This document shows positions 1,771 through 31,452 of a DNA stretch of 32,000 bases, one piece after another. This DNA is from Arthrobacter sp. UC242_113 (GTDB lineage: Bacteria; Actinomycetota; Actinomycetes; Actinomycetales; Micrococcaceae): contig NZ_CP171968.1 of the NCBI RefSeq assembly GCF_044054585.1, forward strand, positions 4,484,740-4,516,739. Reading direction: 5' to 3'. The notes beneath the pieces were generated by a model that made no database searches, was not told the origin of the DNA, and saw nothing but the letters and a program-made list of their open reading frames with translations. The translations under genes were made by a program, and so were the position numbers. Numbering within the stretch: the stretch's first letter is position 1; the number at the start of each line of letters is the position of its first letter.

Positions 1771-2889
1771 TTAGGCCCGCACGGACTCCAGCTCGTTCGC
1801 AATCCGCCGCTCCAGTTCTGATCCGCTGATGGTCTGCGATCCGCCGTGGGCGCGCAGGAACAGCAGCGATTCCAGGCGCAGCAGCCGCCACTCGCGCTCC
1901 GCCTCATGGTTGGAGTTGTCGATGGAGCGGAAGATCTCTTTGTCGTACAGGTTCGGCTCGTTGAGTGAGCGCTGGCGCACCCTGGCCTGCATCCGCGCCT
2001 TGAACGGGTCCGTCTCCTGGTTGTCCGGTGCCCGGAGCAGCTTCTCATACACGGCGGCGCGGTCCTTCTGCCCCGTCTGGCGGCACACGTAGCTGGACAG
2101 CGCGAGCGACGCCTCCACCGACCCCCAGCGGCCCGGGTTGCCGTCGAAGGGCAGCACGTTCAGCAGGTCGGCGACCGCCAGCGCGGCTTCGGCGTCCTTG
2201 AGCATGACGAACAGCTCATGCGCGAGGTCGCTCAGGTCCTTCAGGCAACTGCCGGACTTGGTGTTGATGCCCTTGACCAGCTTGTCGGCCAGCAGTTGCA
2301 CCCCGCTGGAGTCCGGATGGGCCTCCGCCACGGCTTCCACCACGGATTCAGGCGTTCCGGAGGGCTCCGGGATGAGGGCAAGATCGTCGGCGCTGGGGCC
2401 GATCACCACCGGAGTGGTGGACGGCAGTGGGGGCACGACGACGGCGGCAGGCGCCGTGCGCGCAGGCTCGCCGGCTGCTTGGTTCCCCGCTACGGAGTCC
2501 CCGACTACGGAAAGGGGAGTGCCGGCGTCGGATGCTTGGGCGCTCGCCGTTTGGGCGGCACCGTCCGCCGTTGCAGCGCCGTCTGCGGTGGCGGCACGAT
2601 CGACGACGGCAGCGGTCTTTGCAGCGTCATTCACGGCGTCTTCCGGGGCGGGGAAGCCGTCATCCGCGGGTTCAGGGATCCGCACGGACGAGCCGGCAGC
2701 GATGCGCAGCGTGCCGCCGCCGGTGAGGGTCGCAAGGATAATGGCGGGGCTGCCGAAATCATCGGTTTCGACTTCCACGCTGTGGATTTCCGCGGACCGC
2801 TCGCCATCCGGCAGGAGCAGGTGGTCGCCCGCCCGCAGAGAGCCCGCCTGCTGTTCACGGAAGGTCTTGGCAGCTGCAGGGTGGTTCAT
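1771..2889 (-). CDS. hypothetical protein with a central Ala/Pro-rich low-complexity linker
   Basis: 372-aa ORF made of a globular N-terminal segment, an ATADGAATADGAAQTASAQAS linker and a helical C-terminal domain. I recognise no catalytic motif. Confidence 0.55.
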   Translation of the reverse strand: MNHPAAAKTFREQQAGSLRAGDHLLLPDGERSAEIHSVEVETDDFGSPAIILATLTGGGTLRIAAGSSVRIPEPADDGFPAPEDAVNDAAKTAAVVDRAATADGAATADGAAQTASAQASDAGTPLSVVGDSVAGNQAAGEPARTAPAAVVVPPLPSTTPVVIGPSADDLALIPEPSGTPESVVEAVAEAHPDSSGVQLLADKLVKGINTKSGSCLKDLSDLAHELFVMLKDAEAALAVADLLNVLPFDGNPGRWGSVEASLALSSYVCRQTGQKDRAAVYEKLLRAPDNQETDPFKARMQARVRQRSLNEPNLYDKEIFRSIDNSNHEAEREWRLLRLESLLFLRAHGGSQTISGSELERRIANELESVRA

Positions 2890-2974
2890 CGGGAGTCCTT
2901 AAGTTCTCTTGCGGTCCGCCCAACAGTCTACAAAGGCGAGGGTGCGAAGTCGGGGAGGCGCGGGCGCCCGGGCG

Positions 2975-3514
2975 TCAGCTGCCGACGCCGGCGTAGGCCA
3001 GGGCCTGCTTCACCAGGGCGCCGCGGCCGCCGGCAAACTCGAGCTGCACGCCGTCGCTGAGCACTTCCTGGGGTGTCATCCAGGTCAGCTCCAGTGCGTC
3101 CTGGCGGGGGTCGCATTCGCCGGTGACGGGGATGATGTAGGCGAGTGACACGGCGTGCTGGCGGTCGTCGGTGAAGCCGGTGTGGGACGGTGCGGGGAAG
3201 TATTCGGCCACGGTGAAGGGCACCGGGCTGATGGGGAGCTGGGGGAATGCCAGCGGGCCGAGGTCCTTTTCCATGTGCCGCAGCAGGGCGGCGCGGATGG
3301 TCTCGCGGTAGAGCACCCGGCCGGAGACGAGAGACCGGACCATGGTGCCGTCCTCGTCCGCCTGCAGGAGCGTGCCCACCTCATTCACGAACCCGAGTGG
3401 ATCCAGCCGGACCGGCACCGCCTCCACGTAGACCATCGGAAGCCTGCCTCGGGCTTCGAAGAGATCTTCGTCCGAGAGCCAGCCGGGGTTGGGGTCAGGG
3501 GTGCGCACGTTCAT
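2975..3514 (-). CDS. NUDIX-fold-like protein (DUF4916-like)
   Basis: 179-aa ORF. GWLSDEDLFEARGRLPMVYVEAVPVRLD...VGTLLQADEDG resembles actinobacterial DUF4916/NUDIX-related proteins. I did not see a canonical GX5EX7REUXEEXGU box. Confidence 0.5.
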   Translation of the reverse strand: MNVRTPDPNPGWLSDEDLFEARGRLPMVYVEAVPVRLDPLGFVNEVGTLLQADEDGTMVRSLVSGRVLYRETIRAALLRHMEKDLGPLAFPQLPISPVPFTVAEYFPAPSHTGFTDDRQHAVSLAYIIPVTGECDPRQDALELTWMTPQEVLSDGVQLEFAGGRGALVKQALAYAGVGS

Positions 3515-3617
3515 GAGTCATTTTTACCCCATTGCCACAGGTCCGGCCGCCGAGGCGTGAGATTCCACCGCTTAGAGGCGGCCAAAGCGACGAGATCTCA
3601 CCCCTCGATTTGCCGCC

Positions 3618-3673
3618 CTACGACGGGCGCCGGGCCGAGGGGAGCGGGGGGCTACGACGGGCGCCGGGCCGAG
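3618..3673. repeat. 22-bp direct repeat (34-bp period) straddling a stop codon
   Basis: CTACGACGGGCGCCGGGCCGAG occurs at 3618-3639 and 3652-3673. The second copy encodes the last 7 codons including the TAG stop of the VOC gene. Confidence 0.85.
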
Positions 3674-4380
3674 ATCCAGAGCGGTGCCCGCTGGGCTGCC
3701 GCGCCGCCGTTGTCCGGGTGCGGCACATGCAGGGTGCGTCCGAAGGCCTCCTCGGTCAGCGTAACGTCGTGTCCCGCGGCAGAGAGTCGGTCCTGCAGGG
3801 CGCTAAGGTCCCCGGTGTACTCGAACCCCAGCCCCGCGTGCGCCGCGCCGGTACCGGGCCGGGCCATCAGGACACCGCCGTTCTTGGCCGTGAAGTCGGC
3901 GGTTTCGTCGTCGTCCGGGACCGGCCGGAAACGCGCGCCGATGTCCCGCAGTGCCTGGGCGGCGGCGGTCACATCCTCGCTGAACCAGACCTCTACCACG
4001 GCGAGTGCCGGATCCGCATCCGCGCAGTTGGCCCCGTGGGCGGCCTTGTCCGCGAAGAAGCTGAAGCCGTCCGCACCCGTGATCCGGCAGGAGTCGCCGC
4101 GGTCCGCCCGGACGAGCTCGGCGGAGGAGGTGTCCGCTTCCGCGCCGGACTGGTTGGTCCGCCGGGCAAACTCCTCAAGGTCACCGACCTCCACGCCAAA
4201 GTGCGTGACGCCGTCCTCCGCCGTGCCCGGCTCGGCCTGGTGCAGCGCCAGCCGGCCCGCCCCGGCGTCGTACTCCCGCCAGGAGCCCTCATCGGTGGAC
4301 TTGATCATCCCCAGGTCGGTGAGGAGCCGCTCCCAGGGTTCAACCCGGGACGTAAAGTGGATGGGACGGACACGAAGCAT
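3652..4380 (-). CDS. two-domain VOC (glyoxalase/bleomycin-resistance-like) family protein
   Basis: This is the C-terminal 242 aa of track ORF 3652..5214. ATG 4380 is preceded by GAGGAGAGAGC, a strong SD. The upstream part of the track ORF is antisense to the YdeI-like gene and is Arg/Gly-rich noise. Sequence MLRVRPIHFTSRVEPWERLLTDLGM...THFGVEVGDLEEF is VOC-like. Confidence 0.55.
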   Translation of the reverse strand: MLRVRPIHFTSRVEPWERLLTDLGMIKSTDEGSWREYDAGAGRLALHQAEPGTAEDGVTHFGVEVGDLEEFARRTNQSGAEADTSSAELVRADRGDSCRITGADGFSFFADKAAHGANCADADPALAVVEVWFSEDVTAAAQALRDIGARFRPVPDDDETADFTAKNGGVLMARPGTGAAHAGLGFEYTGDLSALQDRLSAAGHDVTLTEEAFGRTLHVPHPDNGGAAAQRAPLWISARRPS

Positions 4381-4521
4381 GCTCTCTCCTCGAACTCGTA
4401 ACACCAGGATCTTCGAAAACGGCGCCGACATGGCCATGATGCCACGTCTTGAATCGCGAAACACCGGGTTAACCAGCGGGTGCCGGGTTGAATCGAGGGG
4501 CACTGCGGGCAGAATAGGCGC

Positions 4522-5130
4522 ATGGCTGTGGAACTCGAGGAACTGCTGATGCCCGACGCCGCCGCGTGGCGGACGTGGCTGGAATCCCACCACAGCGACA
4601 GCCCCGGCGTCTGGCTGGTCCTGCACAAAAAGGGCGGCAACGTCACCGAACTCGACTACGATGCCGCCCTGGACGAGGCGCTTTGCTTCGGCTGGATCGA
4701 CGGCCAGGTAAAGAAGCGCGACGGCGACAGCTACCTTCAGCGCATGACCCGCCGGGGTGCGAAGAGCCCCTGGTCGGAACGGAACGTCGGCCACGTGGCC
4801 CGGCTCGAGGCGGAAGGGAAGATGACAGGTCCGGGCCGTGCCGCCGTCGACGCCGCCAAAGCCGACGGCCGCTGGGAGGCCGCCTATGCGGGACCGGCGA
4901 CGGCGGAGGTTCCGGCGGATCTGGCTGCCGCGATCGCCGCCGTGCCCGAGGCGCAGGCCATGTTCGATGTGCTGACCTCGGTGAACCGGTACGCGCTGAT
5001 CTACCGGACCAATTCGGTCAAGCAGGCCTCCACCCGGGCGCGCAAGATCGCCGGGTTTGTCGAGATGCTGGCCCGCGGCGAGACGCCGTATCCGCAGAAG
5101 AAGCGCCCGGCGCAGAATCCCGCTGGTTGA
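4522..5130 (+). CDS. YdeI/OmpD-associated family protein
   Basis: 202-aa ORF. AWRTWLESHHSDSPGVWLVLHKKG...LDEALCFGWIDGQVKKRD...SPWSERN and the C-terminal FDVLTSVNRYALIYRTNSVKQASTRARKIAGFVEMLARGE are typical of the YdeI family. Confidence 0.75.
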   Translation: MAVELEELLMPDAAAWRTWLESHHSDSPGVWLVLHKKGGNVTELDYDAALDEALCFGWIDGQVKKRDGDSYLQRMTRRGAKSPWSERNVGHVARLEAEGKMTGPGRAAVDAAKADGRWEAAYAGPATAEVPADLAAAIAAVPEAQAMFDVLTSVNRYALIYRTNSVKQASTRARKIAGFVEMLARGETPYPQKKRPAQNPAG

Positions 5131-20946: not shown

Positions 20947-22075
20947 TGAACTGCCGGTAGCTGGCGGACTGCCCGTTCTCCGCGGTCCGGAGAATCTTGT
21001 CCAGCTCACCCTGCGTAAGTTCGTGGTTGTACAGGAACCTGAAGTATTCGGAAGCCTTGCTCCGCACCGCCGACCTCTGCTGGGGGAAGGCGATATCGCC
21101 CAGCCAGTGCCACATCAGGGCCGACTCCTGCCCGGGCGGATCCCAGCGGTAGCCGCCCAGCGGTACCCTGTACACGCGCTTCGAGCGGACTGCGGCCACG
21201 TTCTGCCACACGGGGTCCGAGTAGATGTCCTGCGGCATGGCGGCGTCGAAGTTGCCCAGCAGGATGACCTCAGGGTCCCAGCGCAGGACCTGCTCTACGT
21301 CCACGCCTACCATCCCGGAACCGGTCAGCGGGTCCTTGCCGGTTGGCGGATTGGAGCCTCCCACCAGCTTGATGTAGAAGTCGTTGTAGGTGTTGGCGCC
21401 GGCGACCTTGAGCCCACCCGTGAAGCGGTTGAAGTACAGGATGCTCGGGCCCTTGGACGCGCGCCCGGCCGCCAGGGACTTGACCTCGGCAAGCTCCCGG
21501 TCGCTCCGGGTCTTGAGCTCGGTGGCACGTTCGGGCTTGCCGAGCATGGCCGCGAACATGGCGACCCACGCGTCCACGTCCTCCTGCGTGCCGGAGTTCT
21601 TCAGCCCCAGAACCTGAAGCCCCGCCTTCTCCAGGGGCTCGATGAGCTGCGCGTCCGACCATTGGACCACCACGTCCGGGTTGAGGGCCCGGATGCTCTC
21701 AACGTTGGCGGTGAAGTCCTGCGTGGCGATGTCGTGCGGGAGGTCCAGGGTGGCGGGAAACATGGAGCCCATGATGCCGTCGTGCATGGCCACCCAGGAG
21801 GCGTTGTGCATGGCCGCGAGATGGTCGGCGCTGCGGTCGACGGCGACCAGCAGGGACGCCGACGGCATCGGGATGGTCACCACCCGGGCCACCGGCCGGT
21901 CAAAGGTCAGAGTCCGGCCGCGCTGGTCCGTGATGCTGATGCTGTTGGTGCTGCCCGCAGGGGACGACGGCGGCGCGGTGCCGGATGCGCCGCATCCGGC
22001 CAGCAAGGCGGCGGAGCCGCCCGCAACAAACACCTGTAGGGCGGCGCGGCGGTTTAGGTCTGCAGCTGTCATCAT
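20939..22075 (-). CDS. ABC substrate-binding lipoprotein, class III (FecB/BtuF-like) periplasmic binding protein, Tat-type signal
   Basis: N-terminus MMTAADLNRRAALQVFVAGGSAALLAGCGAS combines a twin-Arg-like motif with a lipobox. The size and position as first gene of the FecBCD-type operon fit this call. The ligand cannot be determined from sequence. Confidence 0.8.
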   Translation of the reverse strand: MMTAADLNRRAALQVFVAGGSAALLAGCGASGTAPPSSPAGSTNSISITDQRGRTLTFDRPVARVVTIPMPSASLLVAVDRSADHLAAMHNASWVAMHDGIMGSMFPATLDLPHDIATQDFTANVESIRALNPDVVVQWSDAQLIEPLEKAGLQVLGLKNSGTQEDVDAWVAMFAAMLGKPERATELKTRSDRELAEVKSLAAGRASKGPSILYFNRFTGGLKVAGANTYNDFYIKLVGGSNPPTGKDPLTGSGMVGVDVEQVLRWDPEVILLGNFDAAMPQDIYSDPVWQNVAAVRSKRVYRVPLGGYRWDPPGQESALMWHWLGDIAFPQQRSAVRSKASEYFRFLYNHELTQGELDKILRTAENGQSASYRQFNA

Positions 22076-22100
22076 TGACTCCCTGCGCGTGGGTCTTCAC

Positions 22101-22129
22101 AGCATCCGCTTCAGGGGCAGAGCTGTCAA
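22101..22129 (-). promoter_or_regulatory. candidate sigma-70-type promoter for the FecBCD-type operon
   Basis: The minus strand reads TTGACA (22129-22124), a 17-nt spacer, then GATGCT (22106-22101). This implies a leader of only about 20 nt before ATG 22075. Confidence 0.3.
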
Positions 22130-22275
22130 CGCTTTGTCCTGCGTTCGGCGAGGGGCGGGTCTCGCTGCCCGGACCTGGCCGCACGCCGCCGGTCCCTTGT
22201 CGGCGCCATGTTCCCTTGTCCGGGTCAGGGGCCCGGTGCTACTTTCAGAGGACGCTCGCAGAAGGTGGCCACGGG

Positions 22276-23049
22276 ATGGTTATCGATGGTGCCCAGTTGT
22301 TCGTCCGCTATGCCTATCCGCCCAATTCACGGGGCAGCTGCGGCCCGCCGGACAGCGACGCCCTGCTCCACTACGGGCAATCCGGCGTCACGGACCAGGG
22401 GCTCCGCGAACTGGCCAAGGGTTTTGCCGGCGCCTGGCCCTACCTCGAACTGATCGCCGGATCGCACGGCATCACGGACCCGCTGGACGCCCGCGTGGTG
22501 GAGGCCTACTGGGTGGGCAACAGCCTCCTGGATACCGTCGGCATCACCAACCTCGGCAACTCCATGGAGGACAGGTTCCGGGCGCGCACTGGGCGGCAGT
22601 TCCCGCATCTGGTGGAAGGCGTCCTGGCGGGCGGGGTCCCGCACCACAGCTTCCACGTGTTCGAAATCTACCCGTGGCTCGGCCTGCTCCGCGACGAACG
22701 CCGGCACGCCACCGCGCTGAACGTGCTGGACAGGTGCCGGATCCGCTGGGGGCAGGTGCTCGCGATCTCCGGGGACGACGCCGTCGTGCGGTCCCGGCCG
22801 CTGGTCTGGGACGGCACGGCGCTGGACGTCGGCGAACCCGTGGTGGAATCGGCCAAGTTTGCCGTTAACGGGACCGGTTTCGTGGCCGGGCTGGCCTTGG
22901 GTGACGTCGTCTCGTTGCACTGGGACTGGGTGTGCGACCGCCTCTCCACCCACCAGCTGCAGCAGCTCAAGCACTTTACGGCGCGGCACCTCCGGATTGC
23001 CAACAGCGGCGTCGAACACCGCGGCGCAGCCATAGCGCTCGAACACTAG
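22276..23049 (+). CDS. conserved hypothetical protein (I recall similar proteins annotated DUF6390; unverified)
   Basis: This is the C-terminal 257 aa of track ORF 21985..23049. ATG 22276 is preceded by GAAGGTGG. Sequence MVIDGAQLFVRYAYPPNSRGSCGPPD...VEAYWVGNSLLD... It is divergent from the ABC operon and convergent with the hydrogenase operon. Confidence 0.6.
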   Translation: MVIDGAQLFVRYAYPPNSRGSCGPPDSDALLHYGQSGVTDQGLRELAKGFAGAWPYLELIAGSHGITDPLDARVVEAYWVGNSLLDTVGITNLGNSMEDRFRARTGRQFPHLVEGVLAGGVPHHSFHVFEIYPWLGLLRDERRHATALNVLDRCRIRWGQVLAISGDDAVVRSRPLVWDGTALDVGEPVVESAKFAVNGTGFVAGLALGDVVSLHWDWVCDRLSTHQLQQLKHFTARHLRIANSGVEHRGAAIALEH

Positions 23050-23086
23050 CGCCGGCCACCAGCGCCGGCCAGCAGCGCCGGCCACC
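23048..23086. repeat. 13-bp tandem repeat x3 starting inside a stop codon
   Basis: AGCGCCGGCCACC / AGCGCCGGCCAGC / AGCGCCGGCCACC. The first AG is the last two bases of the TAG stop (23047-23049). Confidence 0.85.
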
Positions 23087-23112
23087 AACCTGCGAACAGC
23101 AAAAGCGGCCGG

Positions 23113-23144
23113 CTACGGTGACTGCGGCTTACGGTGACTGCGGC
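23113..23144. repeat. 16-bp tandem duplication straddling a stop codon
   Basis: CTACGGTGACTGCGGC (23113-23128) and TTACGGTGACTGCGGC (23129-23144). The second copy holds the last four codons plus the TAA of the minus-strand gene ending at 23129. The first copy is a downstream duplicate with TAG. Confidence 0.85.
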
Positions 23145-23515
23145 GCCGCGCTGTCGGGATGCTCGGGGGTCTTGACGGCCGTCGCGTCGCGGGCGGACGA
23201 CTCGCCGGTTGGCCGGCCGGCGGGCGAATCCTCAGTTCCCGTGTGCTCGCGTCCCGGTTCGGTGCCCTCCTCCTTGATGACGTCCTCGCCCCTGCGGGTG
23301 GTGCTGACGCCGACGTCAGCCGGAGCGGGTGCCGCGTCTTCAGGGGTTTCGTCCGCTCCGGGCTGGGCCGGTTCCTTTAGCGGTGGTTCGCTGCCGAAGG
23401 CCCGGGCTGTCCCCGGTGCGGTGCCCTCTGCGGCGCCCTTTGCGGCGGTTTGCTCGGTTTCCTCGGCCGCGCGCGTTTCCTCGCCGGCGGGGTCAGGCTG
23501 GTTCGTGGGCGACAT
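23129..23515 (-). CDS. acidic, Pro/Glu/Ala-rich intrinsically disordered protein, last gene of the hydrogenase operon
   Basis: 128-aa ORF. A strong SD (AAGGAGAGCAGC) lies immediately upstream of ATG 23515. The start is embedded in the 3' end of hypC with a 23-nt overlap. Composition is low complexity and no motif was recognised. Confidence 0.5.
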   Translation of the reverse strand: MSPTNQPDPAGEETRAAEETEQTAAKGAAEGTAPGTARAFGSEPPLKEPAQPGADETPEDAAPAPADVGVSTTRRGEDVIKEEGTEPGREHTGTEDSPAGRPTGESSARDATAVKTPEHPDSAAPQSP

Positions 23516-23798
23516 GCTGCTCTCCTTGTGGTTGTTGTGCCGGCTGGGATCCGGGGCCGGTGTCCGCCGGGCGGCCCATTAGCTCCAGTCCGTCCATGGC
23601 CTGTTCCGCGCCCGCGGCGTCCACGCGTTCCAGCGCGAAGCCCATGTGGATCAGGACCCAGGTGCCGGGTTCCAGGGGCCCCTCATCCAGCAGCCCGATG
23701 TTGATTTTCCGCTGCACTCCGGCCACATCGACGAGTGCGAGCTGGCCGCCGTACCCCTCGAGGAGTTCAACGACCCTGCCGGGTATTCCGAGGCACAT
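23493..23798 (-). CDS. hypC: HypC/HybG/HupF-family [NiFe]-hydrogenase assembly chaperone
   Basis: It begins with the invariant MCLGIPGRVVEL motif, followed by ...ALVDVAGVQRKINIGLL...PGTWVLIHMGFA. The 101-aa length includes a ~25-aa Pro/Gln-rich C-terminal tail. Confidence 0.88.
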   Translation of the reverse strand: MCLGIPGRVVELLEGYGGQLALVDVAGVQRKINIGLLDEGPLEPGTWVLIHMGFALERVDAAGAEQAMDGLELMGRPADTGPGSQPAQQPQGEQHVAHEPA

Positions 23799-23812
23799 GT
23801 ACAGGCACCGCC

Positions 23813-24320
23813 CTACTTTGACGTGGAAAACAGGTTTGGAGTGGAAGAGTGCGGGCCGAGCAGGGACCCGACGGCGGCGACGGCCTTGGGCACCGCAGCG
23901 GCCACCGCCGGCGAGAGGCCGATCCCTTCGGACAGGTCCGCGGGGACACAGCCCACCACGTACGTGGCCGGCAGGCTGCCACCCATGGACCGAAGCCGGC
24001 CCAGCACTGCCGCCGGGTCCATGCCGTGGGGATCCAGCATGGCCCTGCCGTCCAGGTCCGCCGCGCTGACCCGGAGCACGCGGATGCTGCCCGGAGCCGA
24101 GTTCCCGTCCGCAGGCACAGTGTCCACGAGGACCAGGGTGTCCACGCCGGCGAGGAGATCGTAGGCGAGATGCATGCCCGCGGATGCCGTAGTCCACCAC
24201 GCGGACGCCGGGGGCGAGCGGCTGCGGATGGCCGGCGAGGTGCCGTGCCACCTCGGGGCCGAAGCCGTCGTCGTGCAGGAACAGGTTCCCGACGCCTGCC
24301 ACGAGGACGCCGGCGGTCAC
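23813..24320 (-). pseudogene. hupD: hydrogenase maturation endopeptidase (HupD/HyaD/HycI family) interrupted by a +1 nt frameshift
   Basis: The N-terminal 47 codons (GTG 24320; VTAGVLVAGVGNLFLHDDGFGPEVARHLAG...VRVVDYGIRG) are in one frame. The remainder (MHLAYDLLAGVDTLVLVDTV...LDPHGMDP..., track ORF 23813..24175) is in another frame. The junction reads atc cgc ggG c atg cat. Removing one G restores ...VVDYGIRGMHLAYDLL..., which aligns without gaps to E. coli HyaD ...[15 protein letters not shown].... Confidence 0.8.
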
Positions 24321-24436
24321 ATCCGCCGCACTTTCATGTACCGCCGGATGTCCGGAACTGAGCGGATTCCGACGTAGATGCCCCAGAGGGCCATCGCTGC
24401 CAGCACGGAAACAGTGGCCATTCCTATTGCCTTCAT
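24317..24436 (-). CDS. 39-aa single-pass membrane microprotein
   Basis: MKAIGMATVSVLAAMALWGIYVGIRSVPDIRRYMKVRRM has one TM helix and a basic tail. Its ATG overlaps the upstream stop (ATGA). Its TGA overlaps the downstream hupD GTG (GTGA). The track only shows it hidden in the tail of a spurious 271-aa ORF. Confidence 0.55.
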   Translation of the reverse strand: MKAIGMATVSVLAAMALWGIYVGIRSVPDIRRYMKVRRM

Positions 24437-25833
24437 TGCGGGTTTTCCTTTCCCTCCAGCGGCTCCAGTTCGTCGGGTGCGTAGTAGAAGGACCGGCCGT
24501 AGCCCTCGTGGAGATCGGCCGCCGGATCCTGCTCGAGGACGAGCCCGACGTGGGTGCTGCCGTCGACGTCGAAGTGCACGCTGGTGACCCGCCCGGTCTG
24601 TCCGCCGAAGAACAGGTCCTGGGCGTCGGCGCGCCGGCTCGGGTGCACACGCACCCGGCTGCCGCGCGCCACTGAGACGCCGTTGATCACGACGGCGTCC
24701 TGGTCCGGCCGGACACGGGCCTCCGCCTCCGGATTCCACCAGGGAACGTCCTGCCCGGCCGTGTTCCACGATTCGGCCGGGGCGAACTCGTCGGGATCCG
24801 CGGCGAACGCGTGCGGGTTCCGCAGGGCGCCATGCAGCTGCTGGAGGTCCTCCGGCGACATCGCCTCGCAGCGGTCGATGACGGCGGCGGCCCGCGGGTC
24901 CGTCGCCCGCGCCTCGGCCTTTTCCTCGTCGGTCAGCGTCAGCACCCGCAGGGTGAGGATCTCGTCGATCTCCGTGGAGTCGAACAGCGCCACCGAACTT
25001 TCCGGGGCCACGGCAGGGTGGTCGTAGAGAATGATGGGTGAGACCAGCAGCACGTCGGTCTGGCCTTCGGGGCCGGCCAGCACCGGCCAACAGCGGTGCT
25101 GGGAACACCGCCCTGCTGCCTGCTCTGCCCACGCCGGCGGGTCCAGCAGCGAGACGAAGTCCCCGTCCCGCACGCCGAGCAGCACGTGGGCCCCGATGAA
25201 GGAGGCCGCGGTGGCGTCCTGCCGGTTCCCGGCCGGCAGGGGATGAGCCGAAAGTGGATTAGCCGTGTTGGCCGCGGTGACGCTGAGCCGCAGCAGCGCG
25301 CCGGACTCTTCGGCGGCATTAAGCCGCAGTTCGCCGCGGAGAGCACGACGGCGGCGCACCAGCCGGCCGGCCGGCCTCCCGGCGTCGTCCTTGAGTTCCT
25401 CGACGTCGAGTCCCTCGGGGACCTCCACGGGCAGGACCTGTCCGGCCCGGAGCTGGGCCACGGAGAACGGCCCGAACGCCGTTTCCTGTTCAACGGCCTC
25501 GTCCCAGCTCAGCCAGTTCGCACCGCCCACGGTGAGGCTGTCTACGGGAGTGAACCCGCCGCCGTCGTCCGCTTTTTCTGCCGTGCGCGTCTGCAGCTGC
25601 AGGAAGCGGAAATGGATTTCAAGCCCGGCCTCGGCGCCGGGGGCAAGCAGGCAGTCGGCGGACAGGGACGGTTCCTCCCCGCTGCCGTCCTCCGCGGCGC
25701 CCGGCGGACCCAGGATCCCGAACTGCCAGCGGACCCGGTTCTTCTGGGCGGAGGCGCGGTAGGGGTAGAGCAGGTAGCCCTCGTAGAGGACTGCGTCGGC
25801 GACGGCCCGGGCAAGGGCCAGGCTGGTGTTCAT
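24433..25833 (-). CDS. conserved hypothetical protein of the hydrogenase operon (466 aa)
   Basis: ATG 25833 overlaps the upstream stop (ATGA), and the track ORF extension to 25965 is rejected. Sequence MNTSLALARAVADAVLYEGYLLYPYRASAQKNRVRWQFGILGP... has coding-like composition throughout. No motif was recognised. Confidence 0.7.
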   Translation of the reverse strand: MNTSLALARAVADAVLYEGYLLYPYRASAQKNRVRWQFGILGPPGAAEDGSGEEPSLSADCLLAPGAEAGLEIHFRFLQLQTRTAEKADDGGGFTPVDSLTVGGANWLSWDEAVEQETAFGPFSVAQLRAGQVLPVEVPEGLDVEELKDDAGRPAGRLVRRRRALRGELRLNAAEESGALLRLSVTAANTANPLSAHPLPAGNRQDATAASFIGAHVLLGVRDGDFVSLLDPPAWAEQAAGRCSQHRCWPVLAGPEGQTDVLLVSPIILYDHPAVAPESSVALFDSTEIDEILTLRVLTLTDEEKAEARATDPRAAAVIDRCEAMSPEDLQQLHGALRNPHAFAADPDEFAPAESWNTAGQDVPWWNPEAEARVRPDQDAVVINGVSVARGSRVRVHPSRRADAQDLFFGGQTGRVTSVHFDVDGSTHVGLVLEQDPAADLHEGYGRSFYYAPDELEPLEGKENPQ

Positions 25834-28541: not shown

Positions 28542-30335
28542 CTACTCGCCGGTCAGGGTTTGGGTGGGGGAATGGAGCATGTCCAGCGTCTGCCCGTTGC
28601 CCAGGTACATGTGGACACCGCACGGAAGGCAGGGATCGAAGCTGCGGACGGTGCGCATGATGTCGATGCCCTTGAAGTGCTCCCGGTCGTTCTCCTCAAA
28701 GATCGGCTGCCCCTGGACCGCGTCCTCGTAGGGGCCGGAAACGCCGTTGGAGTCGGTGGGGCTGGCATTCCACGGGGTGGGCGGGTAGGGGTGGTAGTTG
28801 GCGATCTTGCCGTCGCGGATCACCATGTGGTGGGACAGGACGCCGCGGACCGCCTCGGTGAAGCCGCAGCCGATGCCTTCATCCGGGACCTCGAAGGTTT
28901 CCCACGTCTTGGTGCGTCCGGCCCGGATCTCCTCGAGGGCCTTTTCCGCGAAGTGCAGCGCAGCAGCCGCGGCGTAGGCCTGGAAGTAGGTGCGGGCGCG
29001 GTTGCGTTCGAGCGTGTTGCTCCACTGCGGGATGTTCCACTCGAATGTGACGGGCCCCTTCAGTGCGGTCTTGGGCAGGTTGAGCTGGACGCTCCTGCCG
29101 GTGGCCTTGACGTAACCGATGTCCACGAGCCCGGCGAGGGCCGTGGCCCAGAGCCGTGCGAGCGGGCCGCCGCCGGTGTCCAGGGCGAGGTTGTCCTGGC
29201 CGTCGAACCAGCGCGGGGACATGACCCAGCTGTACTTGTCTGCAAGGTCGCGCTTCTGCGGCCGCGGGTTGGTGTGCTGGTTCCACGGATGCCTGCGGTC
29301 CACCGGGTTGCCCAGCGGATCGTGGGTGACGAACATTTCCTGGTCTTCCCAGTCCTCGTAGTACGAGGAGCCGAGCATGATCCGCAGGCCCAGGTTGATG
29401 CGCACCAGGTCGGTGGTGACCAGTTTGCCGTCCACCACCACGCCCGGGGTGACGAACATCTTCCGGCCCCACTCGGTCATGTCCTTGTATTCGAAGTTGC
29501 AGTAGTCCGGGTCCTGCAGCGACCCCCAGCAGCCCAGCAGCGTCCGCCGGAGCCCCACCTGCTCATAGCCCGGCAGTGCCTCGTAGAAGAAATCGAACAG
29601 GTCGTCGTGCATCGGGACGACCTTCTTCATGAACTCGACGTAGCGCATGAGCCGGGTGAGGTAATCCGTCATCAGCTGGATTGTCGCCACCGTCCCCACA
29701 CCACCCGGATAAAGCGTGGAGGGGTGCACGTGGCGGCCCTCCATCAGGCAGAACATCTCACGGGTGGCCCGGCTGACCTGCAGGGCCTCGCGGTAGAACT
29801 CGCCGGTGAAGGGGTTCAGCGAGCGCATGATGTCGGCGATGGTCCGGTAGCCGTGGTCGGCCTCATGGGGCGCCCGGGTGTTTTCAGCCTTGGCGAGGAC
29901 ACCGGGGTTGGTCTCGGAGACCATCTTTTCGCAGTAGTCCACACCGACGAGGTTTTCCTGGAAGATGTTGTGGTCGAACATGTACTCGGCGGCTTCGCCC
30001 AGGTTGACGATCCATTCGCCGAGGTTCGGGGGCTTGACGCCGTAAGCCATGTTTTGCGTATAGCAGGAACAGGTGGCGTGGTTGTCGCCGCAGATCCCGC
30101 AGATGCGGCTGGTGATGAAGTGGGCGTCCCTTGGGTCCTTGCCTTTCATGAAGAGGGAGTAGCCACGGAAGATCGAGGAGGTGCTCTTGCATTCCACGAC
30201 CTGGTTGTTCTCGAAGTCGATCTTTGTGTAGATGCCGAGGCTGCCGACGATCCTGGTGATGGGATCCCAGTTCATTTCCACCAGGTTGTTGTTACCCGTT
30301 CCGCTTCCGGAACCCATGGGAATTGTGGACGTCAT
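28542..30335 (-). CDS. hhyL: [NiFe]-hydrogenase large subunit, group 1h/5 (high-affinity Hhy type)
   Basis: L1 motif TSRICGICGDNH and L2 motif SFDPCLPCGVH are present, followed by a 22-aa C-terminal extension (MYLGNGQTLDMLHSPTQTLTGE) expected to be removed by the endopeptidase. ATG 30335 (MTSTIPMGSGSG...) is preferred. The track extension to 30521 overlaps hhyS and is Pro/Ser-rich noise. Confidence 0.95.
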   Translation of the reverse strand: MTSTIPMGSGSGTGNNNLVEMNWDPITRIVGSLGIYTKIDFENNQVVECKSTSSIFRGYSLFMKGKDPRDAHFITSRICGICGDNHATCSCYTQNMAYGVKPPNLGEWIVNLGEAAEYMFDHNIFQENLVGVDYCEKMVSETNPGVLAKAENTRAPHEADHGYRTIADIMRSLNPFTGEFYREALQVSRATREMFCLMEGRHVHPSTLYPGGVGTVATIQLMTDYLTRLMRYVEFMKKVVPMHDDLFDFFYEALPGYEQVGLRRTLLGCWGSLQDPDYCNFEYKDMTEWGRKMFVTPGVVVDGKLVTTDLVRINLGLRIMLGSSYYEDWEDQEMFVTHDPLGNPVDRRHPWNQHTNPRPQKRDLADKYSWVMSPRWFDGQDNLALDTGGGPLARLWATALAGLVDIGYVKATGRSVQLNLPKTALKGPVTFEWNIPQWSNTLERNRARTYFQAYAAAAALHFAEKALEEIRAGRTKTWETFEVPDEGIGCGFTEAVRGVLSHHMVIRDGKIANYHPYPPTPWNASPTDSNGVSGPYEDAVQGQPIFEENDREHFKGIDIMRTVRSFDPCLPCGVHMYLGNGQTLDMLHSPTQTLTGE

Positions 30336-30363: not shown

Positions 30364-31422
30364 TTACCAGGTGCGCCGGGCCCCGGTGAGGAGCTCGGGT
30401 CCGGGCCGGCGCCACTTGGGCTCCTGGTCCAGGGTGTGCGTCGTGATGCCCCGCAGGGTCCGGATGGCGGAGCCGTAGGGCCGGATGGTGCTGGTGGAAA
30501 GCTTGCCGCCGGGAGGCTCATCCATGAAGGGCATGAACTTGTCCGGGAAGCCGGGCATGGTGCAGCCGATGCAGATGCCGCCGACGTTGGGGCAGCCGCC
30601 GATGCCGTTCATCCAGCCGCGCTTGGGCACGTTGCACTTCACCACGGGGCCCCAGCAGCCGAGCTTGACGATGCACTTGGGGGACCCGTACTCGGTGGCG
30701 AAGTCGCCTTGCTCGTAGTAGCCGGCCCGGTCGCAGCCTTCATGGACCGTCTTGCCGAACAGCCACGTGGGTCGCAGTGCCTCATCCAGCGGAATCATCG
30801 GTGCCTGGCCGGTGGCCTGATAGAGCAGGTACGTCATGGTTTCGGAGAGGTTGTCAGGCTGGATCGGGCATCCGGGAACGCAGACGATGGGGATGCCGGC
30901 CTTGGACTTCCAGTCGTAGCCGAGGTAGTCCGGCACGCCCATGGCGCCGGTCGGGTTGCCGGCCATGGCGTGGATGCCGCCGTAGGTTGCGCAGGTTCCG
31001 GCGGCGATGATCGCGGTGGCCTTGGGTGCCAGGCGGTCCAGCCACTCGCTGGTGGTGATGGGCTGGCCGGTCTCGAGGTCGTTGCCGAACCCGCACCAGT
31101 AGCCGCCGGGGTCATGGAGTTTCTCGTTGGGAATGGATCCCTCGACCACCAGCACGAACGGTTCAAGTTCCCCCCGGTCCGCCTTGCGGAACCATTCCAG
31201 GAAATCGTCGGCCCCTTCCTGCGGGCCGCATTCGAAGTCGATCAGTGGCCAGTGCATGGCGATCTTCGGCAGGCCGGGCAGCGCCCCGAGGGCGATTTCT
31301 TCGACGCTCGGCTGGCTGGCCGCGGTCAGGGCGACCGAGTCGCCGTCACAACTGAGCCCTGCGTTGATCCACAGCACGTGGATGAGGGCTTCTTCGGCCT
31401 TGAGGGAAGTTTCCGTAGGCAT
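30364..31422 (-). CDS. hhyS: [NiFe]-hydrogenase small subunit, group 1h/5, no Tat signal peptide
   Basis: Fe-S ligand regions are present: LSCDGDS, GTCATYGG, CVPGCP, and KLGCWGPVVKCNVPKRGWMNGIGGCPNVGGICIGCTMPGFPD. The N-terminus MPTETSLKAEEALIHVLW lacks an RRxFxK motif. AAGAGG SD lies upstream of ATG 31422. Confidence 0.95.
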   Translation of the reverse strand: MPTETSLKAEEALIHVLWINAGLSCDGDSVALTAASQPSVEEIALGALPGLPKIAMHWPLIDFECGPQEGADDFLEWFRKADRGELEPFVLVVEGSIPNEKLHDPGGYWCGFGNDLETGQPITTSEWLDRLAPKATAIIAAGTCATYGGIHAMAGNPTGAMGVPDYLGYDWKSKAGIPIVCVPGCPIQPDNLSETMTYLLYQATGQAPMIPLDEALRPTWLFGKTVHEGCDRAGYYEQGDFATEYGSPKCIVKLGCWGPVVKCNVPKRGWMNGIGGCPNVGGICIGCTMPGFPDKFMPFMDEPPGGKLSTSTIRPYGSAIRTLRGITTHTLDQEPKWRRPGPELLTGARRTW

Positions 31423-31452
31423 CGTTGCCTCTTTCAGTGCCCCTGCCGGGGT

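Follow-up and report, generated by a model that had tools for sequence, protein, structure and literature searches.

A [NiFe] hydrogenase operon in an Arthrobacter assembly (5.02 Mb, 66% G+C, six contigs) contains a gene for a HycI/HupD-type maturation endopeptidase that cannot be read in a single frame, which raises the question of whether this gene is broken in the organism or only in its deposited sequence. The operon lies on the minus strand of the 32,000-nucleotide stretch of DNA that was analysed (hereafter the window), is of the group-1h type and has the order hypB, hhyS, hhyL, a gene for a NifU/Rieske protein, DUF5947, DUF6084, a gene for a 466-aa unknown protein, a DUF6893 microprotein gene, the protease gene, hypC and a gene for a 128-aa acidic protein. 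A DUF6390 gene is found on the opposite strand, and hypA is located just outside the window. The features of the locus are as follows.

30364..31452, minus strand: hhyS, the small subunit, intact.
28542..30335, minus strand: hhyL, the [NiFe] large subunit, intact, with the L1 motif RICGICGDNH and the L2 motif DPCLPCGVH.
28545-28610, minus strand: the 22-residue C-terminal extension of HhyL after DPCLPCGVH, the presumed protease substrate.
24317..24436, minus strand: the gene for the 39-aa DUF6893 microprotein, translationally coupled to hupD.
24177..24320, minus strand: the hupD N-terminal part (N-part), 48 codons, bearing the first metal-ligand motif HDDGFG.
24177..24179, minus strand: the GGG run with one surplus G (CCC on the plus strand), which is GG in all relatives (CGC/CGA GGC ATG).
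23813..24175, minus strand: the hupD C-terminal part (C-part) in the other frame, 120 codons plus stop, with the ligand motifs LVDTV and DPHG.
23493..24176, minus strand: the continuation of the N-part frame, 126 out-of-frame codons followed by hypC in frame (101 codons), with no stop before 23493 (ORF 23493..24650).
23493..23798, minus strand: hypC (HupF/HypC family), intact.
23129-23515: the gene for the 128-aa acidic protein.

The endopeptidase gene, hupD, spans positions 23813-24320 of the minus strand, and its frame is shifted by the GGG run at 24179-24177. The minus-strand letters at the junction are ...ggc atc cgc GGG (24179-24177) c (24176) ATG (24175-24173) cat ctc.... The first 48 codons start with the GTG at 24320, which shares the letters GTGA with the stop codon of the microprotein gene upstream, and encode VTAGVLVAGVGNLFLHDDGFG...VVDYGIRG, while the C-part (MHLAYDLLAGVDTLVLVDTV...DPHG...) is one base out of frame relative to the N-part and ends at the TAG stop at 23813-23815. 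The frame change by one G at 24176-24179 that had been claimed in a preliminary description of this DNA is thus confirmed, both by the minus-strand letters and by the ORFs in the two frames. With GG instead of GGG, hupD encodes a protein of 168 aa. As written, the frame of the N-part stays open for 227 codons past the junction and enters hypC in frame, and a ribosome starting at hupD would make a chimera of 275 aa (HupD N-terminus, junk sequence and HypC) rather than a neat half enzyme. The first ATG of the C-part corresponds to a conserved internal Met of the intact protein (GIRGMHLAYDLL in relatives; Leu in more distant ones).

The N-terminus of HupD varies in length among related genes. In A. 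ipis and several others the start is immediately followed by 25 additional codons (189-193-aa forms; window positions 24245-24320), and the short 168-aa form is common to this genome and to three of the other loci compared (L025, L030 and L032). A 75-nt difference from A. ipis after the start codon was considered as a second lesion and was rejected, as the short form is shared with the intact 168-aa genes of L025, L030 and L032; near its 5' end, hupD differs from the A. ipis gene by 75 nt and by 3 nt, both in frame and both also found in intact genes. A separate variation was noticed on L025, a metagenome contig of 593 kb, in which DUF6084 and the 466-aa unknown protein are called as one 683-aa product (positions 1953-4004), a natural fusion.

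The sequence obtained by removing one G was compared with known maturation proteases. It matched TIGR00072 at positions 1-143 of 145 with 119 bits against a cut-off of 47, an end-to-end match above the curated cut-off, and Pfam HycI (PF01750) at positions 3-127 of 130, to which the C-part alone matched at positions 32-127. It was also colinear, in an alignment, with residues 3-145 of E. coli HybD (1CFZ), in agreement with the earlier claim of a contiguous reading colinear with an E. coli protease. The metal ligands of HybD (Glu/Asp16, Asp62 and His93 in HybD numbering) have their counterparts in D18 (HDDG), the D of LVDTV and the H of DPHG, which align at these three positions. In the alignment with HybD, the first ligand, D18, is on the N-part and the other two are on the C-part; as had been suggested, therefore, the ligands as written are on separate polypeptides. 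The large subunit encoded in the same operon has an extension after DPCxxCxxH, the substrate expected of a HycI/HupD protease, and the 22-aa C-terminal extension described earlier for HhyL is indeed present after DPCLPCGVH.

These results support the assignment of the gene to the HybD/HyaD/HupD family. Like the members of this family, it shows a full profile match, colinearity and acidic/Asp/His residues at the three ligand positions, and it is located between the hydrogenase genes and hypC in an operon with a large subunit that has a C-terminal extension after DPCxxCxxH. It differs from them in that its frame, as assembled, is broken after codon 48; the uninterrupted reading frame that is characteristic of the HycI/HupD family is missing in this assembly and found in all relatives. 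The surroundings also differ from those of the enterobacterial Hya/Hyb operons, as the gene here is in an actinobacterial group-1h-type operon. Judged from its sequence, the gene is a regular member of the HybD/HyaD/HupD family except for the broken frame of this one assembly. In a search of the whole genome, including for the second hupD that the preliminary description had considered, no other HycI-family gene was found, and the split one is the only one.

Four explanations had been put forward in the preliminary description with no choice among them: a recent inactivation, an error of sequencing or assembly at a homopolymer, +1 recoding, and an enzyme that functions in two pieces. Comparison with orthologous loci, also proposed there, bears on all of them. 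The GGG at the hupD junction was absent from about 50 related sequences (six Arthrobacter genomes, some 25 metagenome contigs and 23 actinobacterial genomes), all of which have GG and an intact gene. The closest species genome, that of A. ipis, is 92% identical in this region and reads atccgc-ggcatgcat. In all six related Arthrobacter genomes with the gene, the junction is crossed by one open frame that reads DYG(I/V)RG(M/L)HLAYDLL. Similarly, 20 metagenome or Logan contigs (two sets of 10) with an identical upstream microprotein contain an intact HycI gene of 161-183 aa with CGCGGCATG or CGAGGCATG, including three 168-aa genes with the short N-terminus whose nucleotide identity is 94.6-97.6%. 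In a pattern scan that permitted either GG or GGG, 9 metagenome contigs and 23 genome contigs were matched, the latter from Arthrobacter, Streptomyces, Nocardia, Mycobacterium and a Propionibacteriales MAG, and every match was the 27-nt GG form. The extra G is present in the assembly and is unique to it. The split was found in no close relative, which had been named as the test of a real split gene, and that proposal is not sustained.

The 27-nt stretch itself, GGACTACGGCATCCGNGGCATGCATCT, which encodes DYGIRGMHL (window positions 24165-24191; loci L070-L092), is identical at the nucleotide level across Arthrobacter, Streptomyces, Nocardia, Mycobacterium and the Propionibacteriales MAG. This identity is an unusually strong DNA-level conservation for coding sequence.

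The remainder of the gene shows no sign of decay. Compared with the intact 168-aa gene on L030, the two parts of hupD have 9 synonymous and 1 non-synonymous codon differences. Compared with A. ipis, the synonymous and non-synonymous differences are 58 and 5 in hhyL, 25 and 2 in hhyS, and 5 and 2 in hypC, respectively, and the same comparison revealed no frame-breaking gap in any other gene of the operon. The gene is otherwise under purifying selection. Given that non-synonymous differences are few and that the rest of the operon is unbroken, the frameshift is either extremely recent or not real.

The quality of the assembly was evaluated with the coding ORFs of the whole 1.1-Mb A. ipis contig that is syntenic with the region: among orthologs at least 80% identical, those for which tblastn gave a match split into two adjacent pieces in different frames were counted. 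Such frame-split orthologs numbered 7/315 and 20/478 in this genome, or 27/793 together (about 3%), compared to 7/807 in A. ipis in the reciprocal test (Fisher p = 4e-4). Comparison of the DNA showed that a clean gain or loss of one base in a mononucleotide run accounts for about 15 of the 27 splits, with changes in either direction (e.g., C5 to C6, G4 to G3, G5 to G4, C4 to C5 and A2 to A3), and that most of the others are single-base indels. The change from GG to GGG in hupD is an event of the same kind. The split genes include clpC (C1:4170987), in which C5 has become C6 and the protein flanks are 100% and 99.7% identical to those of A. ipis, with no close paralog of clpC found in this genome; ychF (2266591), in which G4 has become G3; and the genes for RNase J (rnj; 748955), dapF (760921) and argB (802075). 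Other frame-split sites in this genome are at 761590, 2870245, 1521449, 3518760 and more. The genuine loss of clpC, ychF, RNase J, dapF and argB together is implausible in a free-living soil bacterium. As the split genes include housekeeping genes that are not credibly all broken, the assembly evidently carries consensus indel errors on the order of a hundred.

It should be noted that two other ways of counting were set aside. A codon-usage scan for frame switches returned 759 weak and 68 strong candidates; it caught hupD and clpC, missed ychF and was too noisy for an error count. A first classification of indels at the DNA level blended gene-end and intergenic events, and the counts given above were taken from the tblastn split-frame test instead. 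The reverse case was also observed: a 440-aa ORF at window positions 3655-4974 (minus strand) is intact in this genome and split into two frames in A. ipis (G002 C11:152555-153875).

A further line of evidence comes from the Logan contig SRR30602143_984 (2,489 bp), on which the exact HypC protein is also encoded. This contig is the same as window positions 21690-24178 except for one missing G in the G4 run at 23414. It begins exactly with GGCATGCAT, inside the G run of hupD, and its other end is exactly ...ATCCGG, inside another GGG run (21690). Between these two ends, 88 G/C runs of three and a further 19 longer runs are traversed with no break. A contig would end in this way at a de Bruijn fork between cGGcatg and gGGcatg. 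As a de Bruijn contig breaks off at such a base when both words are frequent, the reads of that run appear to disagree on the length of the G run, and the intact GG form is probably present among them in substantial proportion. The contig end fits noisy long-read data from the same strain, with which we presumptively identify the run and its technology. Exact-product look-ups with the C-part (120 aa), the 466-aa neighbour, the 47-aa N-part, DUF6084 and a predicted partial ClpC returned no contig on the far side of the junction or at the clpC site, and a look-up with the 39-aa microprotein and a small flank returned other contigs, all with GG and none from SRR30602143.

At position 23414, in the gene for the 128-aa acidic protein, the Logan contig has GGG, compared to GGGG in the assembly and in the relatives, and the Logan version would truncate the ORF. 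This observation suggests that the reads of SRR30602143 are unreliable in G runs.

Taken together, these results favor a consensus indel error as the source of the third G at 24177-24179, in an assembly that is error-prone and probably built from long reads; the base would then be lacking in the DNA of the organism. We assign this view a probability of roughly 0.85. This view is favored because the base is unique, the gene is not decayed, lesions of the same kind are in excess and include housekeeping genes, and the Logan contig forks at this site. In the cell, the hupD/hybD-type maturation endopeptidase gene would then be ordinary and intact, in an Arthrobacter operon for a group-1h-like [NiFe] hydrogenase, and would read ...DYGIRGMHLAYDLL... 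as one 168-aa protein, which would trim the 22-residue C-terminal tail of HhyL after nickel insertion. Homopolymer and other single-base indel errors of long-read assemblies are a well-known source of false frameshifted pseudogenes. The hupD lesion resembles them in being a one-base change in a G run that is unique to the assembly, in having dozens of +1 and -1 equivalents, and in that the k-mer assembly of a nearly identical run forks there. It differs from them in that the run is short (2 to 3) and in that the sequencing technology is here deduced; that the technology was long-read, and that this particular base is one of the errors of the assembly, are what we infer from the pattern as a whole.

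Several observations speak against an artefact. At 2 to 3 bases the run is short, compared to runs of 4-6 for many of the more obvious errors. The hupD gene is dispensable for growth, so a real knock-out would be more tolerable in it than in clpC or dapF. The background of 7/807 in A. ipis means that a certain number of frame breaks or gene-end variants are genuine, or turn up in every assembly. Where the Logan contig forks at its other end (21690), the GGG of the assembly gives an intact gene, and a forked site is not necessarily miscalled. Of the four explanations offered earlier, the sequencing or assembly error is the one favored here, inactivation persists as a minority reading, and the recoded and split forms are left unsupported.

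The best surviving alternative, though an unlikely one, is that the insertion is real, very recent, and either fixed or segregating in the culture, and that it inactivates the sole maturation protease. HhyL would then keep its tail, no active hydrogenase would be formed, and ribosomes starting at hupD would run into hypC. Consistent with such an insertion are the presence of the G in the deposited assembly, the non-essential nature of hupD, and the fact that this is the sole HycI-family gene, so no paralog would mask its loss; the few frame breaks of A. ipis indicate that real ones exist, and the Logan fork would also fit a mixed population of GG and GGG. GGG is, however, found in no other sequence, and selection is not relaxed, with synonymous to non-synonymous ratios of 9:1 in hupD and 58:5 in hhyL. 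Lesions like it affect, moreover, about 27 per 800 genes here, housekeeping genes included, and by base rates (27/793 vs. 7/807) about three quarters of the assembly-specific frame breaks exceed the A. ipis background.

Much less probable is a strain-specific recoded or split enzyme, in which a genuine extra G would not prevent synthesis of the protease, because ribosomes slip by +1 at GGG-C or because two fragments cooperate. For two fragments, the N-terminal one and a C-terminal one restarting at the ATG at 24175 would have to assemble non-covalently. The position of this ATG right at the junction is suggestive of a restart; it is, however, the conserved internal Met (Leu in distant relatives) and no new start, and no ribosome-binding site is visible ahead of it. 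Read onward, the N-part frame continues for 227 codons with no stop and joins hypC, the split is found in no relative, and the three metal ligands would have to be shared out between two chains, all of which make a functional split enzyme highly improbable. Programmed +1 ribosomal frameshifting at GGG-C that restores the full-length protease is the least credible proposal of all. The slip of a glycine tRNA from GGG to GGC would yield exactly the conserved GIRGMHLA, but the shift site is in none of the about 50 relatives, while conservation is the rule for programmed sites. It is followed by CAT, which is neither a stop nor obviously rare, no upstream GGAGG or Shine-Dalgarno-like stimulator was seen by eye, and an assembly error explains the site fully. 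The site resembles that of prfB (RF2) in having one extra base at a codon where the P-site tRNA could re-pair in the +1 frame, and differs from it in that the site is not conserved and that no in-frame stop, hungry codon or upstream Shine-Dalgarno-like stimulator was seen by eye.

While the split of hupD most likely is an artefact of the assembly, analyses of the other maturation genes revealed a different peculiarity. The maturation genes present with the hydrogenase operon are hypA, hypB, hypC and that for the protease. HypD, HypE and HypF are regarded as universally required to assemble the Fe(CN)2CO portion of the active site. Searches of this genome, which is 100% complete, found neither HypD (PF01924, TIGR00075) nor HypF (zf-HYPF, TIGR00143), and no HypE above the cut-off (TIGR02124). 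Of 101 Arthrobacter species genomes in a single sample, 17 have the [NiFe] large subunit, while HypD, HypE and the HypF zinc finger were each found in none, and no HypD was found in any of 201 Micrococcaceae genomes. As a positive control, HypD was found in 46 of 151 genomes of the class, at about E = 1e-150, which demonstrates that the search works on high-G+C actinobacteria. Among the genomes that share the hupD 27-mer, HypD was identified in Streptomyces, Mycobacterium and Nocardia and not in Arthrobacter sp. AFG20 or A. ginsengisoli. Loci from one Mycobacterium and one Streptomyces genome have hupD and hypC, then hypF and hypE further on, with hypD also in the Streptomyces locus. Despite the absence of HypD, HypE and HypF, the Arthrobacter structural genes hhyL and hhyS are, from their substitution pattern, under strong purifying selection. 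A search of the literature on hydrogenase maturation in Arthrobacter, including the source of Fe(CN)2CO without HypD, HypE and HypF, returned nothing relevant.

In the class sample, HypD was found in 31 of the 40 genomes with a strong large-subunit match, and the nine genomes without it include the two of Arthrobacter and a pair of near-complete genomes from a different genus. A strong match to the [NiFe] large subunit with no match to HypD was seen in the actinobacterial genomes G278 and G307 (same genus, 95-97% complete), as well as in G302 and G358. The HypD-less state may therefore not be confined to Arthrobacter.

With regard to hupD, most likely nothing here is new biology, and the split gene is not a real feature. 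An annotation pipeline would nonetheless label hupD a pseudogene, and a trait predictor would score the strain as unable to mature its high-affinity hydrogenase; by the same token, clpC, dapF, argB, ychF and RNase J would also count as "lost" in this assembly. Polishing with short reads is needed, and any pseudogene call in this assembly is suspect. If the base were real, the strain would be a natural protease-null mutant for studies of HhyL processing, which would be of modest interest. What may matter more than the split of hupD itself is the lack of HypD, HypE and HypF, in the genomes searched, from Arthrobacter species with this well-conserved hydrogenase operon.
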